NCBI GenBank assembly: GCA_964460325.1
Contig: CAYWPI010000001.1
Coordinates: 11,105-75,104, forward strand
DNA: 64,000 nt
DNA from: an uncultured Candidatus Saccharibacteria bacterium
Lineage (GTDB): Bacteria; Patescibacteriota; Minisyncoccia; UBA6257; 1-14-0-10-44-23
Reading direction: 5' to 3'
The position numbers and the translations under genes were made by a program. Positions 12,365-17,527 of this stretch are shown piece by piece (position 1 is the first letter of the stretch; every line of letters starts with the position of its first letter). The notes below the pieces were generated by a model. The model was not told where the DNA came from, did no database searches, and worked only from the letters and a program-made list of their open reading frames with translations.

Positions 12365-12440
12365 GAAAATAAATAACTAATCAGATCACCGAAAACTCTC
12401 GGCAAGATACACGATATATACCTTATTAGTTTAGCATATG

Positions 12441-12962
12441 CTACGTCGCAACGCGGCCAAGGCGATACACACCTTCGATACTGGAAAATGTCTTTACGCA
12501 CCGCATGCAGTAATAATGCGCATCACGACTAGAAAAATACTCTGGATTCTTTGTCTCGCACAATGCGCACGTCGCGTGTCTCGGATCAAAACCCAAAATA
12601 GTTAATATGTGAAGCGCAGAGGGTTTTGCAGAGGCAAGTTCATGCCATAAACGCTCATCAGCGTGATGTTCAGAGGTAAGTGAGCGCACAATCTGACACA
12701 GGCCAATCTGCTCTCTGGAAATGTTCACGTTGCCTCGCGCCGGCAAGGCGTCAACAATCTGAATACCGTTCTTCTCAACCAATCGAACCTGCACGCGACG
12801 CATTGGCTGCAGATAACTTGAAAGACGAGAAGTAATATGCCCAGCGCTGCGCGCCCGTGCCATTATCCGGCCAAGCTCTTTGGTGTATAAAAAAATGCGG
12901 GCGTCGGTTTCGCCAGCAATCTCTCTGTCTAATACAATCGCTTCGGTGAGATATTCGCGCAT
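12441..12962 (-). CDS. recO: DNA repair protein RecO (short)
   Basis: N-terminal OB-fold-like MREYLTEAIVL... and a C-terminal Cys4 zinc-finger pattern. Confidence 0.65.
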   Translation of the reverse strand: MREYLTEAIVLDREIAGETDARIFLYTKELGRIMARARSAGHITSRLSSYLQPMRRVQVRLVEKNGIQIVDALPARGNVNISREQIGLCQIVRSLTSEHHADERLWHELASAKPSALHILTILGFDPRHATCALCETKNPEYFSSRDAHYYCMRCVKTFSSIEGVYRLGRVAT

Positions 12963-13031
12963 GCCTTCAGCATATCACAGGAGCCAAGTCGCGCATGCGC
13001 AACTTGGCTCCGATATTATACTTCCGCCGCT

Positions 13032-13448
13032 CTAACCGGCAGCGAGTTTGTACGCTCGTTCGCTAACGGCCTGCACCAGTCCTTCACCAACCTGGGATCG
13101 TTCGTATGCCATCTGGCATCCGCACATACAATATTCCCGCCTGACGGCCTCCGTGTCAGAGATGGCAATACGCAAGCAGTCGCGCCCATCCTCCGTATCG
13201 CGACGACACAGCTCCGAAACAAGTCGTAGTGGTGAAGCGCCCTGTACTGATCGCACCTTGTGATCATCGACAACCACAATGTCGCGCCGAGGATCGTGCA
13301 TGCAAAGCAAACGACCCCCTTCAACCGTATCGCTTTCCATAAAAACAAAGTGCTGTCGCGGGAAACGTACACCTAGCAATTCTTCGAGTACCTCACGGAA
13401 AGACTCGGTAAGCCCAATCCAGATGACCGTAATCGCCTTCTTGAGCAT
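13032..13448 (-). CDS. Hypothetical 138-aa protein, high-GC cassette b
   Basis: SD AAGGAGGA upstream of the ATG. High GC. C-terminal CMCGC motif. Confidence 0.45.
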   Translation of the reverse strand: MLKKAITVIWIGLTESFREVLEELLGVRFPRQHFVFMESDTVEGGRLLCMHDPRRDIVVVDDHKVRSVQGASPLRLVSELCRRDTEDGRDCLRIAISDTEAVRREYCMCGCQMAYERSQVGEGLVQAVSERAYKLAAG

Positions 13449-13539
13449 CTCATCCTCCTTGCTTGACGCAAAAAATCCACCGGGAACCGTGTTTGTAGAA
13501 ATACAAGCCTTTTACTAAAAAGTCAAGAAACGGATGGCT

Positions 13540-14058
13540 TTACACTCCCTGCGCCTTTGAGCCACGGGCGCGGCGAATCAGTTCGTCGCGCAGCTGTTCT
13601 GCCTCTGCGCGGGACAAAGCCGGAAGTCTTCCCTCGGCGTGCATACCCGATGTTCCTCGGCGGGTTACAAGGGCGCTTGCGCCGGCTGTTTGAATATGCA
13701 AATCGGAGAGCCCAAGAATGCGAGCCAAGATGCCACGATAGATATCCACATTCTGGATGCGCTCATAAGGAATAGTTACGTAACGCTTATAGATAACGCC
13801 TGATTCTTTCCGAAAGCCATTCTCAGTAAGTTCATAGAGAAAGTAACCATACGAAAGCTTCGCCCAGATCCAGCACAGCGCCAGAACGATAATCAGCATG
13901 GGCCAAAACAGATTGAGTGGAATGCTATAGCCTTGCTCCAAGGCCACGACCGCGACGTCGGCAAGTATCCAAAAACGGACAACCACTAAAAATAGTGTCC
14001 AGCGAAATGCCAGTCTTATGAAAAACAGCCAGAGCGCTTTCGGGTCAAGATGCTTCAT
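13540..14058 (-). CDS. Bacterial PH-domain membrane protein (YdbS/YdbT-like)
   Basis: Two transmembrane helices followed by a bPH_2-like domain. Start chosen at MKHLDPK. Confidence 0.55.
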   Translation of the reverse strand: MKHLDPKALWLFFIRLAFRWTLFLVVVRFWILADVAVVALEQGYSIPLNLFWPMLIIVLALCWIWAKLSYGYFLYELTENGFRKESGVIYKRYVTIPYERIQNVDIYRGILARILGLSDLHIQTAGASALVTRRGTSGMHAEGRLPALSRAEAEQLRDELIRRARGSKAQGV

Positions 14059-14082
14059 GATCTGTGATGTTATGTTTTTATT

Positions 14083-14162
14083 GTGCGGGATATTGAATTT
14101 AGTTCGAACCGTGTTCGCGGCGCCGCCCGCCACCGGCGCACGCGAAGGGCGAACCGGTCTTT
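14083..14162. repeat. IR-A left arm: 80-bp perfect inverted repeat
   Basis: Exact reverse complement of 15258-15337, compared by eye. Confidence 0.85.
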
Positions 14163-14265
14163 AACAATTTCAAGTTGTTTTTTGGCGGCAAATTCTTGAT
14201 TTGATTGTATCCTAATTTGCTGAAAAGAAAAGGAACCCTTAACGATCGCGTACTGCGATGGGTTC

Positions 14266-14670
14266 CTACGGGGGCGTTGCAGCCCCAGCTGAAGACGACA
14301 GAGATGGATTCAGTCGTCGGGTTCGGACGAGAGCGAGCAGCGTCAGTAGCTCTTGCGGAGCAACGTATCCACCAAGTTGCTCCACCATCAGTGCGGCCTT
14401 CTCGATGTCTTCCTTGCTGAACTGGCTGGGCGCTTCGGGTCGCAACTGCTTCGCGATGCCATGAAGAGCGCGAGCGTCTTCTTCTGTCTTCCCGCAAGCC
14501 CTTGCAATGGCCAGCAAGGTCTTCAGACGCGGCACGAGTGTGATCGTCTCCTCGATGCGCCGGATCTGCGAGATCGCGATCTTCGCCTTTTCGGCGAGTT
14601 GCTCGCGACTTAGACCTGCTTCCTTGCGCCAAGCCCGAACGGTCGCGCCGACACCTTGAACTTCGTTCAT
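14266..14670 (-). CDS. XRE-family HTH transcriptional regulator
   Basis: HTH signature LSREQLAEKAKIAISQIRRIE. High GC. Start overlaps the upstream ORF stop (ATGA). Confidence 0.6.
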   Translation of the reverse strand: MNEVQGVGATVRAWRKEAGLSREQLAEKAKIAISQIRRIEETITLVPRLKTLLAIARACGKTEEDARALHGIAKQLRPEAPSQFSKEDIEKAALMVEQLGGYVAPQELLTLLALVRTRRLNPSLSSSAGAATPP

Positions 14671-14850
14671 CCGCGTTTCTCCTGAATGAGCTCGTGAATG
14701 GCGCGGATGGACATCACGATCCAGAATCCGCCGACGCCACCGGCAATCGAAGGAACGATCTTGATTCCGATCGCGTACCCGATCGCAGCTACGGTCAGCA
14801 AGACATACGCACCGATCGTGAAGAGCATGGCTGCTTTAGCGGTTTCCATC
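14667..14850 (-). CDS. Small membrane protein (~60 aa)
   Basis: METAKAAMLFTIGAYVLLTVAAIGYAIG... SD AAGGAGGAG. Translationally coupled by TGATG/ATGA overlaps on both sides. Confidence 0.4.
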
Positions 14851-15093
14851 ACTCCTCCTTCTTCTCGTTCGGACGAACGATGATCATGCTCCCCCCGAAG
14901 CCCAGCTTCCATCCTAGGAGCCAAGCGATGATGAGGATCCCGATCGAGATCCCGATGCCCGGCAGGATCGCAGGACGCCCGACGGCCCACAATGGGACGC
15001 CGAAAGCTCCTGCCCACATCAGCACGAAGAAGATGCGGTAGACGACCGCCTCACGCGGACCGAGCTCGTGCACGGTCAAGTTGGCAGGTCCCA
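14850..15093 (-). CDS. Small membrane protein (~81 aa)
   Basis: MGPANLTVHELG... with two transmembrane segments. First gene of a three-gene minus-strand operon. Confidence 0.35.
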
Positions 15094-15257
15094 TGTGTAC
15101 TCCAAGTGCCACAATTGGCCTGCTGAATATGCCACATCTCAAAATAAAAAGCAAATATAAAACAAAAACAGCCCCTTTGGGCCGTTTCTCAAAAATGTTC
15201 TTTTCTTCTTTCCCTCTGATTCGAGCCGATGGATTTCCGGGCTCTTTGGCGGTTTTG

Positions 15258-15337
15258 AAAGACCGGTTCGCCCTTCGCGTGCGCCGGTGGCGGGCGGCGC
15301 CGCGAACACGGTTCGAACTAAATTCAATATCCCGCAC
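15258..15337. repeat. IR-A right arm
   Basis: Reverse complement of 14083-14162. Confidence 0.85.
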
Positions 15338-15406
15338 AAGTCAGAAGATGTCAACGCCTCGCGCCGACTTTGTCGGCGCTCGGCGAGCTGTTGGTACGGC
15401 GGTTTC
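15334..15406. repeat. IR-B left arm: 73-bp perfect inverted repeat, abutting IR-A
   Basis: Exact reverse complement of 16845-16917. Shares GCAC with the end of IR-A. Confidence 0.85.
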
Positions 15407-15449
15407 TCTTAGGGAAAGAAGAAAAGAACATTTTTGAGTTAAATCTCAT

Positions 15450-17255
15450 ATGAAATACATACTGTACGCAAGAAAATCAACAGAAGAAGACGACAGACAA
15501 GTCTTGAGTATTCAGGCGCAACTCGCAGAGTTGCGAGAATTTGCCGCCAAAGAACACCTTGAAATTGTTGCTTCCTTTCAGGAAGCCAAAACCGCCAAAG
15601 AGCCCGGGCGAATTAAATTCGCAGAAATGGTGGCAATGATTGAATCCAAGAAAGCAGACGGAATCATAAGCTGGCACCCCGATCGTCTTGCTCGCAATTC
15701 CGTAGATGGAGGCAAGATTATTCATTTGATCGATCGCGGCTTGATCAAGTCATTAAAATTTCCCACCTTCTGGTTTGAGGCCACCCCACAAGGTGTGTTC
15801 ATGCTCAATATCGCCTTTGGACAGAGTAAATATTTTGTAGATAATTTGCGAGAGAATGTGAAGCGGGGACTACGACAGAAGATCAGAAACGGCATCTGGC
15901 CTGGCTGGGCTCCGGTGGGGTATATTAATAATCCACGAACGCGAGATATTGATGTTGATAGTGAAAAAGCTCCAAAAGTGAAGAAGTTGTTTGAGATGTA
16001 CGCCACCGGAGCATACACACTAAGTTCTCTCGCAAATTGGTGCGTGGAAAATAATCTCAAGGGCAACAGGGAGAAGAAAATATCAATCAGCAATCTGCAG
16101 AGTATTCTACAAAATATTTTCTACGTTGGCCTCATGAGATATCGTGGGGAAATTTTCGAAGGCAAGCACGAGCCACTCATCTCAAAGAAACTTTTTGATG
16201 AAGTCCAAAAAGCGATGAAAAACCGAGGAAAACAGAAACACGTTCGTAAACATCACTTTGCTTTTCTTGGCCTACTCAAATGCGCTTCGTGCGGTTGCTC
16301 CATCACCGGCGAACGTCAGAAGGGTCACAACTATTATCGCTGCACCAAAAAGAAAGGCCCATGCCAAGAAAAGCATTATCTTCGAGAAGAAGATTTATTA
16401 GCTCAAATCAAAAGCATTCTTCAAAAAGTTTCTTTGGGAAGCCACGACACTGAAAGAGTTTTGGCGGCGCTCGCAGGCGAGGAGGCGGAGGCAAAAGAAT
16501 ACTCTCAAAATGAAGTAGGGTTATTAAAATCAAAACTGACAGAAATAGAAGCCAAACTCTCCCGCCTCCTCGACCTGTATCTTGCGAGCGAAATATCCCT
16601 TAGCAAAGAGGAGTTCGCCGCCAAAAAAGAAAGCCTTGTCTTGCAAAAGGCAGAATTAGCTCAGAAAATTAATGATATTGAGCAAAAAGGAGTGTCGTGG
16701 CTCGAACCGGCTCGTGAGTTCGTTCTATCCTTGAATCAAGCCGCGAAACTGCTTGAGAATGGGAACCCAGAATCATTGCCACCATTTCTCAAAGCCATCG
16801 GCTCGAACCACACCCTTCAAAACCGACAAGTCGGTTTTGAGCTGAAACCGCCGTACCAACAGCTCGCCGAGCGCCGACAAAGTCGGCGCGAGGCGTTGAC
16901 ATCTTCTGACTTGTGCCCGGGACAGGAGTCGAACCTGCATGCCTTGCGGCGCTACCACCTCAAGGTAGTGCGTCTGCCATTTCGCCACCCGGGCAAACTT
17001 GCATTAACAATCTCGACGCTTGCAATACAAGGTCGGGACTCCGACCCGGTCATAGCGTCGGATCTGACAACTAATAACTTACAACAAGCAACAAGAACTT
17101 TCAAATCAAAACCGCCCTTGCGGGCGGCAATGAGTTATTTTTCTTTTGTGTCAGCCTCTTTTGCTTCAGCCGGCTTGGTGGCTGCCTTTTTGTCGTTACC
17201 ACGCTCAGCAGACATCTTACGACGAATCGCCTTCCTGCTAATATCTCGGATGTAA
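15450..17255 (+). CDS. Large serine recombinase; the ORF has no in-frame stop and reads through IR-B and tRNA-Leu, so it may be a pseudogene or carry a non-native 3' end
   Basis: YARKST catalytic-serine motif at the N-terminus, resolvase domain, recombinase domain, zinc ribbon CASCGCS...YYRC and a coiled coil. The native end is probably near ~16845. Confidence 0.75.
   Translation: MKYILYARKSTEEDDRQVLSIQAQLAELREFAAKEHLEIVASFQEAKTAKEPGRIKFAEMVAMIESKKADGIISWHPDRLARNSVDGGKIIHLIDRGLIKSLKFPTFWFEATPQGVFMLNIAFGQSKYFVDNLRENVKRGLRQKIRNGIWPGWAPVGYINNPRTRDIDVDSEKAPKVKKLFEMYATGAYTLSSLANWCVENNLKGNREKKISISNLQSILQNIFYVGLMRYRGEIFEGKHEPLISKKLFDEVQKAMKNRGKQKHVRKHHFAFLGLLKCASCGCSITGERQKGHNYYRCTKKKGPCQEKHYLREEDLLAQIKSILQKVSLGSHDTERVLAALAGEEAEAKEYSQNEVGLLKSKLTEIEAKLSRLLDLYLASEISLSKEEFAAKKESLVLQKAELAQKINDIEQKGVSWLEPAREFVLSLNQAAKLLENGNPESLPPFLKAIGSNHTLQNRQVGFELKPPYQQLAERRQSRREALTSSDLCPGQESNLHALRRYHLKVVRLPFRHPGKLALTISTLAIQGRDSDPVIASDLTTNNLQQATRTFKSKPPLRAAMSYFSFVSASFASAGLVAAFLSLPRSADILRRIAFLLISRM
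16845..16917. repeat. IR-B right arm; its last 4 nt overlap the 3' end of tRNA-Leu
   Basis: Reverse complement of 15334-15406. Confidence 0.85.
16914..16994 (-). tRNA. tRNA-Leu(GAG)
   Basis: Manual fold: acceptor GCCCGGG, anticodon loop TTGAGGT, long variable arm, T-loop GGTTCGACTCC. Confidence 0.8.
17100..17128 (-). terminator. rplS terminator
   Basis: Hairpin CCGCCCTTGCGGGCGG followed by a T-run on the minus strand. Confidence 0.55.
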
Positions 17256-17527
17256 TAAATCTTTGAGCGACCCACTTTCTTCGGCGAACTAATAATTTCA
17301 ACCTTACTAATAGCCGGAGAAAAAATAGGAAATGTTTTTTCCACGCCAAGCCCGGCAACAGTTGCGCGCACCGTAAAACTCGCGCCAGCCTCCGTACCGT
17401 GTTTGCGGGCGAGCACTAAACCTTCAAAACGCATCTGGCGCTCTTTATCCCCTTCTTTATACGACTCAAAAACACGCACCGTGGCGCCTGTTTTTATTTT
17501 TTCCATGACTTCTTTTGAAATGGCCAT
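17135..17527 (-). CDS. rplS: 50S ribosomal protein L19
   Basis: The KIYYIRD region matches the L19 family pattern. 130 aa with a basic C-terminal tail. Confidence 0.85.
   Translation of the reverse strand: MAISKEVMEKIKTGATVRVFESYKEGDKERQMRFEGLVLARKHGTEAGASFTVRATVAGLGVEKTFPIFSPAISKVEIISSPKKVGRSKIYYIRDISRKAIRRKMSAERGNDKKAATKPAEAKEADTKEK

Follow-up and report, generated by a model that had tools for sequence, protein, structure and literature searches.

A recombinase reading frame without a stop codon of its own is probably the intact large serine recombinase of a small integrative element docked at a tRNA gene in a Patescibacteria genome

Why would a recombinase gene read on, without a stop codon, through an inverted repeat and into the opposite strand of a tRNA gene and a ribosomal protein gene? 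The question is raised by a 64,000-nucleotide stretch of DNA (the window; contig CAYWPI010000001.1 of assembly GCA_964460325.1, positions 11,105 to 75,104) from an uncultured Candidatus Saccharibacteria bacterium. On its plus strand, a serine recombinase open reading frame (ORF) begins with ATG at 15450 and ends at 17255, with TAA at 17253-17255, and encodes 601 aa. It runs through the downstream arm of a 73-nt, 100% complementary inverted repeat found by self-comparison (arms 15334-15406 and 16844-16916), then through the antisense of tRNA-Leu(GAG) (16913-16994, minus strand; ARAGORN and Rfam), which shares 4 nt with the repeat arm, and finally through the last 121 nt (17135-17255) of rplS (17135-17527, minus strand; Ribosomal_L19, PF01245, E 8e-26). 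The initial annotation of this locus had traced the same path, and all of its coordinates hold; it proposed either that the 3' end of the gene had been replaced by repeat sequence, leaving a pseudogene, or that the C-terminus is specified by whichever flank is juxtaposed. We propose with good confidence that the ORF encodes the intact large serine recombinase of a small integrative element, located at 14081-16916, and that the flank spells the tail of the protein at the tRNA junction.

The first 489 residues (15450..16916, plus strand) form a conserved large serine recombinase body, as defined by Pfam domains and homolog alignment. Resolvase (PF00239, aa 4-149, E 5e-21), Recombinase (PF07508, aa 172-259) and Zn_ribbon_recom (PF13408, aa 272-321) together occupy aa 4-321. 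The nucleophile Ser10, in the motif 'YARKST', is invariant in the homolog alignment, and the zinc-ribbon cysteines Cys278, Cys281, Cys298 and Cys305 are all kept. Residues 214-378 resemble the C-terminal domain of A118 integrase (4kis/6dnw, E 4e-6), structure matches being confined to A118 integrase and SPbeta SprA, both weak. Residues ~330-415, which may correspond to the coiled-coil motif that controls directionality from within the zinc ribbon of large serine integrases, appear charged and heptad-like by eye. Pfam gave no HTH_7 match, and a conserved body of 489 aa departs from the architecture of the small invertases Hin, Gin and Cin, which are ~190 aa. A protein-collection search returned more than 7,600 relatives at E<=1e-10, and those with a source name come almost entirely from Patescibacteria, bacteria of the candidate phyla radiation (CPR). 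Several recombinase-bearing records carry the labels Gammaproteobacteria, Deltaproteobacteria, Latescibacterota, Marinimicrobia or Woesearchaeota; for a CPR element, these assignments probably reflect mistakes in binning or labelling.

Where the native protein ends is decided by its homologs. The best 120 are 67-75% identical to the window protein and 463-656 aa long, most commonly 489 or 502 aa, and their alignment is conserved up to '...L(T/Q)FPxWC', which corresponds to query residue 489, and diverges immediately afterwards. The codon of this residue (16914-16916) is the final codon of the repeat, and the repeat encodes the conserved C-terminal residues 465-489 (about 24), reading '...ERRQSRREALTSSDLC' in the window and '...ERRVSRREALTFPLWC' or '...ERRVSRREALTFPxWC' in homologs. 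Since similarity extends through the repeat to its final codon, the gene's native 3' coding end is the repeat itself, which has replaced nothing, and the upstream arm is therefore the duplicate. The similarity thus ends within the ~470-500 aa that had been predicted, and the native C-terminus, which had been placed at or inside the repeat, lies at its end and not inside it. The gene is, judged from its sequence, intact rather than a pseudogene. The remaining 112 codons and TAA (16917..17255, plus strand) match no Pfam family, and other proteins match the tail only over residues 1-35, the antisense tRNA-Leu part. The initial annotation had allowed that homologs of about 600 aa might share the read-through portion; homologs of 597-656 aa do exist, and none aligns with tail residues 36-112.

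The junction with a tRNA gene is a trait of the family. We compared 80 loci fetched from species-representative (GTDB) genomes, 68 of which extend beyond the junction, and in about 58 of these 68 the codons of the terminal WC overlap by ~6 nt with the 3' end of a convergent tRNA gene. Thirteen tRNA types are represented (Leu, Arg, Tyr, Lys, Phe, Ile, Val, Ala, Gln, Ser, Met, Asn and Glu). The last conserved codons are TGG TGC, the reverse complement of GCA CCA, and TTG TGC in the window. None of the 10 tRNA genes in the window encodes CCA; they end N73-C-A, with C-A following the discriminator in most of them (e.g. GCAC|A), and this accounts for the window's TTGTGC in place of the family's usual TGGTGC. 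Beyond WC, the sequence of most homologs reads 'PGxxSNPH...', the translation of an antisense tRNA. Essentially no member of the family has a stop codon of its own. In tRNA-joined loci the ORF stays open for a further 0-118 codons past the junction, and tails among the 120 best homologs span 0-169 codons (median 15), with 3 of the 120 reaching at least 100 codons and the 112 of the window ranking third longest. A perfect 73-nt repeat cannot arise by chance, whereas an open run of 112 codons after the junction can: 12% of reads from random positions and frames of the window stay open for at least 112 codons. The tail of the window is a chance outlier.

Some loci depart from this arrangement in their surroundings. 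Many of the loci L003-L082 begin or end a few hundred bases from the recombinase gene, indicating that assemblies break there. In L003 and L015 a variant arm, TGGTG(T/C)(A/G)TTTATT(G/T)TACCAA..CGAACC, directly follows the 3' end of the recombinase and yields the 'IYCTKLEP' tails of P0012 and P0014. L003 also has the usual cargo unit upstream of its recombinase, and cargo-like units may thus lie at both ends of a recombinase gene.

The most direct evidence that the flank supplies the tail comes from recombinases that are the same protein at different junctions. For these comparisons we denote the recombinase 3' coding end as Y, the ~76-nt arm following the crossover core at the left end of the element as X, and inverted copies by a prime; f1, f2 and k are copies of recombinase gene nt 87-120, 138-158 and 1342-1361, and u is the recombinase 5' leader. 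Within one 90%-identity recombinase cluster, whose contigs were mapped by common sequence blocks, six different tails are attached to bodies that match one another at 488/488 residues. Three are antisense-tRNA tails ('SRQDLNLHPL...', 'AGEDSNLHVLTD...' and 'AGEDSNLQALRH...'), and the others are 'PG*', 'P*' and an X-arm tail, 'SILKIVRTFFAACGGKDTSA*'. The element sits at tRNA-Leu(taa) in L085-L090, while the recombinase of L085 recurs in L084 at tRNA-Leu(gag) beside rplS, the context of the window itself, with the same cargo as in L085 over the ~800 nt that both contigs hold. L087 shares site and recombinase with L085 and carries other cargo, the identity breaking exactly at the boundary between leader and cargo. 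In L091 (tRNA 3' fragment-Y'-recombinase-Y-core-X-f2-k-u-cargo) and L092 (tRNA-Arg(+)-CCA-Y'-recombinase-Y-core-X-f1') the recombinase is co-oriented with the tRNA and ends in Y-core-X, so that for identical recombinases both orientations of the recombinase segment are seen (L085 versus L091/L092). Taken together, the six tails on identical bodies and the mapped loci show that the recombinase 3' end joins several tRNAs and its own X arm. The proposal that the flank specifies the C-terminus is thus supported by about 58 of 68 tRNA junctions, by the six tails and by the two orientations. In L083 (1257-3033), each Y arm of the recombinase unit is fused to the 3' end of a tRNA-Leu gene, the two genes being convergent, and no X arm lies nearby. 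Such a structure would result if the internal site reacted with a second tRNA end and so inverted the chromosomal segment between two tRNA genes.

Two of these contigs have a composite structure. The Y' arm beside tRNA-Arg in L092 (441-490) is a hybrid whose first ~45 nt come from another element lineage and whose remainder is identical to this element, which implies that lineages have recombined or that the site was occupied by one after the other. Upstream of the left site in L085 (3718-4603) lies a second unit that has no recombinase and consists of an f1' copy, a 113-aa ORF, a k'-like block and core-X, which suggests accretion of older cargo units.

How these junctions arise can be read from the recombination sites. 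Large serine integrases recombine attP with attB at a 2-bp crossover and leave hybrid attL and attR sites. Comparison of three sites per locus confines the crossover to a 6-nt core, and to 'GT' in L026. In the window, the same 6 nt occur in all three sites, delimited by identity break-points and by the overlap of two repeat pairs: site 1 (core TTGTGC, 14081..14086, plus strand) joins the flank to the X arm at the left end and is attR-type; site 2 (core GCACAA, 15334..15339, minus strand) is internal, inverted and an intact attP-type site (Y-core-X); and site 3 (core TTGTGC, 16911..16916, plus strand) joins Y to the tRNA, is attL-type, and is the reverse complement of the tRNA's GCA and CAA. 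The junctions Y|tRNA, Y|X and flank|X are observed, and flank|tRNA is inferred. These four constitute the set expected of attP (Y|X) crossed with attB (flank|tRNA), and therefore the element spans 14081-16916, with an extra inverted attP-type site kept. The two kinds of arm differ in the position of a TCGAAC motif, which occupies +19 to +24 on the tRNA side and is shifted outwards by 5 bp, to +24 to +29, on the X side; a 5-bp offset between B-type and P-type half-sites of serine integrases is established for the A118/LI integrase. We also considered the Y arm as a B-type half-site in a platform-plus-cassette arrangement, and the observed combinations of junctions fit attP = Y|X and attB = flank|tRNA.

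We propose that crossover would take place where the conserved part of the gene closes with the two codons TGG TGC (TTG TGC in the window), the antisense of the discriminator and the CCA/CAA end, so that an element without its own stop codon would integrate at a tRNA 3' end. Translation would then enter the antisense of the tRNA and end at the first chance stop; in the window, tRNA-Leu, the spacer and the antisense of rplS simply happen to be open for 112 codons. The mobile form would be a circle-forming unit with two inverted attP-type sites, of which the one at the recombinase 3' end would be used for integration and site 2 (15334-15339) left intact, still able to react with other tRNA ends or to let the recombinase segment flip. 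Computed from the window, the product would measure 601 aa in the integrated form, 514 aa from the circle junction, where TAA falls on the X/f1' boundary, and 553 aa in the inverted state. None of the alternative junctions supplies an immediate stop; the initial annotation had suggested looking for a junction that provides a stop codon.

Several observations weigh against this account. The Y arm lacks clear P-type spacing, a directionality factor is not evident within the 2.8-kb element, and any reason for keeping a second attP-type site would have to be inferred. Excision and inversion are putative for the genome of the window, as is the empty site, and some alternative states are known from short metagenome contigs. 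No close relative was available for an empty-site comparison, the flanking bPH_2 gene having a best non-self match of 62% in the collection searched. In addition, TTGAC in Y, which contributes to a promoter-like sequence described below, may owe its conservation to recombinase binding or to coding rather than to promoter function. Movement of cargo as free cassettes with a site of P/P type would leave a palindromic X'|X junction, and this had 0 matches in metagenome contigs, a weak result since the search used one exact sequence variant and palindromes assemble poorly. No older attachment sites were seen to the left of the element, at 12400-13600.

Among the alternatives, the one that survives best is a regulatory switch between isoforms, in which inversion, as in hin, or excision deliberately swaps the C-terminus and the tails differ in activity or stability; the read-through or non-stop product of the integrated form, for example, could be degraded while the circle gives a defined 514-aa product. 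The occurrence of identical recombinases in both orientations (L085 versus L091/L092) speaks for such a switch, the X-arm tail opens with a conserved 'SILELVRTHFAA', and terminator-like hairpins at 17111-17128 and 17167-17184 (consensus scan), ahead of the ORF stop codon, could give a non-stop mRNA; a non-stop recombinase transcript is conceivable on this basis. The tails themselves argue against it. Those derived from tRNA genes range over 0-169 codons without pattern, and conservation of the X arm ends after ~12 codons, with later stops at variable places, as for a DNA site; we accordingly rejected the X arm as a conserved coding tail. We regard the switch as unlikely. Since tail lengths vary from 0 to 169 codons and X-arm conservation is of the kind seen in DNA sites, the most economical reading is that the read-through tail is an accident of the junction and would have no function.

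A dead recombinase that lost its 3' end and stop codon, with the repeat in their place, is the explanation that the initial annotation put first, and an ORF that stays open for 112 codons past its conserved part and overlaps a tRNA gene and rplS invites it. Truly damaged copies also exist elsewhere (the 5'-truncated L038, L048, L058 and L066). Yet the repeat spells the conserved residues 465-489, no damage is seen in the domains or in the catalytic and zinc-ribbon residues, the copies within each of the two repeat pairs are 100% identical, and the absence of a stop codon is common to essentially all family members; moreover, loci with identical recombinases at different junctions argue that close stop-less relatives move. 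We therefore hold pseudogenisation to be very improbable.

Chimeric metagenome assembly, which would have made the repeats, the mosaic upstream region and the join of ORF and tRNA, deserves mention because the source is a metagenome-assembled contig, its product (P0001) is found on one NCBI contig only, and many related loci finish at contig ends. Against this, block order and break-points repeat in >40 independent assemblies from different studies, and the contigs of L083, L084, L087, L091 and L092 were, according to their names, assembled at k=141, longer than the ~100-nt repeats, which leaves an artefact hardly credible. A genuine 601-aa protein with an extra C-terminal domain, the product annotated by NCBI (P0001), is effectively refuted, as its tail has no Pfam family and no homolog beyond the antisense-tRNA stretch and is read from the strand opposite a tRNA, a terminator and rplS.

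Returning to the integrative element, its 2.8 kb (14081-16916) hold three recombination sites and a three-gene cargo. From the left, the site 1 core is followed by the distal X arm (14087..14162, plus strand), a P-type half-site with about 50 further nt; the first ~36 nt of the arm are conserved between loci. Next comes f1' (14163..14196, minus strand), a 94% match to 15536-15569 that is found in 44 of 55 loci, and then the cargo segment (14197-15187). A terminator-like hairpin, predicted by consensus scan only, lies between cargo and leader (15164..15189, minus strand). The leader consists of u' (15188-15215; 100% identical to the recombinase 5' untranslated region), k' (15217-15236; 90%) and f2' (15237-15257; 100%), all on the minus strand, and the order and break-points of these blocks are unchanged in about 40 loci. 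The proximal X' arm (15258..15333, minus strand) then leads into the core of site 2, an arrangement that recurs in 35 loci, and the two X arms with their cores form a second inverted repeat of 82 nt that is 100% identical in self-comparison (14081-14162 and 15258-15339). Beyond site 2 are Y' (15340..15406, minus strand), the duplicate arm, which repeats in inverted orientation and at 100% identity the final 67 nt of the conserved part of the recombinase ORF; u (15411..15438, plus strand), the leader that is duplicated ahead of the cargo; and the recombinase gene, whose Y arm (16844..16910, plus strand) serves both as native 3' coding end and as recombination-site arm. The three-site layout, in the same order and with the same break-points, is present in about 41-46 of the 55 loci whose upstream sequence reaches 1.8 kb or more.

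The recombinase-derived blocks of 20-35 nt near the cargo are, where detected, ~98% identical to the recombinase gene of their own locus, and the same gene blocks differ by 8-18% between loci, which indicates concerted evolution, with a detection biased to high identity; in the chimeric L085 these blocks have diverged. Exactly between f1 and f2 in the recombinase ORF lies a 17-nt perfect palindrome, GCTTCCTTTCAGGAAGC (15570..15586, plus strand). Compensatory substitutions, some of them synonymous (GCTTCCT/AGGAAGC, GCCTCGC/GCGAGGC and GCCTCTT/AAGAGGC), preserve its 7-bp stem in 39 of 40 loci, and the palindrome may represent a conserved hairpin or else a secondary site of recombination. The 5'-truncated recombinases of L038, L048, L058 and L066 lack their first 34-47 codons and break at or beside this palindrome, with Y' in L038 fused straight to recombinase gene nt ~115. 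A perfect 19-nt inverted repeat (15623-15641 and 16771-16789) also lies within the gene, beside f2 and k, and is retained with at least 16 of 19 matches in 13 of 40 loci; it may account for the f2-k deletion junction found next to the cargo. Further observations are a 24-nt near-palindrome, TCAAAACCGACAAGTCGGTTTTGA, at 16817-16840, in the recombinase 3' region just ahead of the repeat, and a GC-rich hairpin, GCGCCGACAAAGTCGGCGC, within the 73-nt repeat.

The cargo of the window comprises three overlapping genes on the minus strand, an HTH_XRE regulator (14266-14670; HTH_31/HTH_3 in Pfam) and membrane proteins of 60 aa (14667-14849) and 81 aa (14849-15094). GC content is 57-59% across the cargo (14200-15200), against 44% in the recombinase gene and about 48% in the surroundings, which suggests that the segment is foreign in origin; no non-coding RNA was found in it, Rfam having returned only tRNAs. 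Almost every related locus carries a different cargo. By Pfam, the families include NUDIX, HD, radical SAM, SAM-methyltransferase, short-chain dehydrogenase, bPH_2 and FAD oxidoreductase; secreted proteins also occur, and ORFs in L073, L076 and L081 look restriction-modification-like by the appearance of their sequence, not by family search. Just outside the left end of the element is a bPH_2 membrane-protein gene (13540-14058, minus strand), a homolog of which is the cargo of L046 and whose relatives lie mostly on very short contigs.

A consensus scan identifies a sigma-70-like promoter sequence, TTGACA-17 nt-GATATT (15326..15354, minus strand), that is split across site 2, with its -35 in Y, its -10 in X and the crossover within the spacer. 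It faces through X, f2, k and u into the cargo. The same 17-nt-spacer geometry is found at site 2 in 30 of 35 loci, and mean promoter scores are 8.9/12 at site 2, 7.4 at site 1 and 4.1 at site 3. The longest cargo ORF is on the strand of the promoter-like sequence in 39 of 44 loci, and cargo start codons often abut the leader ('...taatcATATG'). We propose that this predicted promoter, divided over the crossover, would drive the single variable cargo.

These findings have practical and broader consequences. The public 601-aa 'recombinase' is a 489-aa enzyme with an accidental tail, and gene callers will assign members of this family arbitrary lengths, 488-656 aa among the best matches, and spurious overlaps with tRNA and ribosomal genes. 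One serine recombinase uses several different tRNA ends, in contradiction to the working rule that tRNA genes are targets of tyrosine integrases only. The element family is large, resides in Patescibacteria and is apparently undescribed; nearly every copy carries a different gene, indicating a compact route of gene flux in tiny CPR genomes, and the short, conserved and ubiquitous target means that the enzyme may interest genome engineering. A more ambitious possibility, which we advance tentatively and think less probable than not, is that Patescibacteria harbor an abundant, undescribed gene-shuttling system built on this serine recombinase, combining tRNA docking, a second live site and cargo exchange with a tail and blocks that do work. 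A unit with ~100-nt terminal inverted repeats may, under this hypothesis, dock at the 3' end of essentially any tRNA gene, and the arms of the second live site may assemble a promoter from which a single arbitrary cargo gene is expressed and exchanged, as in a one-cassette integron. The stop-less ORF would couple the C-terminus, and possibly protein stability through non-stop decay, to the recombination state, and the 17-nt hairpin and recombinase-derived blocks would be working parts of cargo exchange.

How does the element relate to systems already described? The literature that we searched holds no description of this CPR element family. The closest enzymes are the large serine integrases of phages (A118/LI, phiC31, Bxb1 and SPbeta SprA), which share the order of resolvase domain, recombinase domain and zinc ribbon, four junction types fitting attP x attB, and an element-arm motif placed 5 bp further out. 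The present element differs in targeting the 3' ends of many tRNA genes, in placing the crossover inside the enzyme's own last codons, and in being a ~3-kb unit that has no phage genes and keeps a second, inverted attP-type site. A phage origin was rejected, relatives occurring in only 4 of 2.9 million viral contigs as weak or partial matches. Serine integrases were not known to target tRNA genes in the Islander study (PMC4383910).

An integrase ORF that crosses its own attachment site has precedents among tyrosine recombinases. Mx8 targets tRNA genes. Its integrase IntP and those of SSV have ORFs that cross the attachment site, and integration alters the C-terminus; here, likewise, conservation ends at the core and identical bodies have different tails. 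These integrases extend across attP (PMC4383910), and an altered C-terminus of Mx8 IntP on integration is attributed to Tojo et al. (1996) as cited there. Theirs are tyrosine recombinases of phages and viruses, whereas ours is a serine recombinase that uses many tRNA species and acquires an arbitrary tail in place of one defined alternative product.

Hin-type segments resemble the element in having a recombinase gene flanked by inverted repeats that share a crossover core, and an inverted-site segment is seen in both orientations in relatives (L085 versus L091/L092), the window itself providing the repeat arms only. Hin, however, belongs to the small serine invertases, carries a C-terminal HTH and acts at 26-bp sites with a Fis-dependent enhancer, whereas here a large serine recombinase is paired with repeats of 73-100 nt, one arm of which is the coding end of the enzyme fused to a tRNA. 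A promoter divided between two arms recalls the circle junctions of IS911, IS30 and IS2, where a promoter assembled transiently at the joined ends drives the transposase. In both, the -35 comes from one arm and the -10 from the other; here the promoter is predicted and the junction is permanent, internal and directed at the cargo.

Cargo elements docked at tRNA genes are also known as tRNA islands and, in streamlined genomes, as tycheposons (bioRxiv 10.1101/2020.12.28.424599). Those elements mostly use tyrosine integrases, with one tRNA each and direct partial-tRNA repeats, while in this family one recombinase serves several tRNAs and the tRNA duplication is no more than about 6 nt. Integrons provide the nearest parallel for the cargo, as they too place a recombinase beside a site whose promoter-like sequence faces outward, together with a single, highly variable gene that lacks a promoter. 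They rely on the tyrosine integrase IntI, attI, folded single-stranded attC sites and arrays, in contrast to a serine enzyme and, usually, one cargo unit bounded by ~90-nt inverted X arms and recombinase-derived blocks instead of attC, docked at tRNA genes; cassette capture in this CPR element is putative. Collectively, these comparisons place the element with the serine integrases, distinguished by a tRNA 3'-end target, a crossover within its own ORF, a second attP-type site and a single variable cargo.

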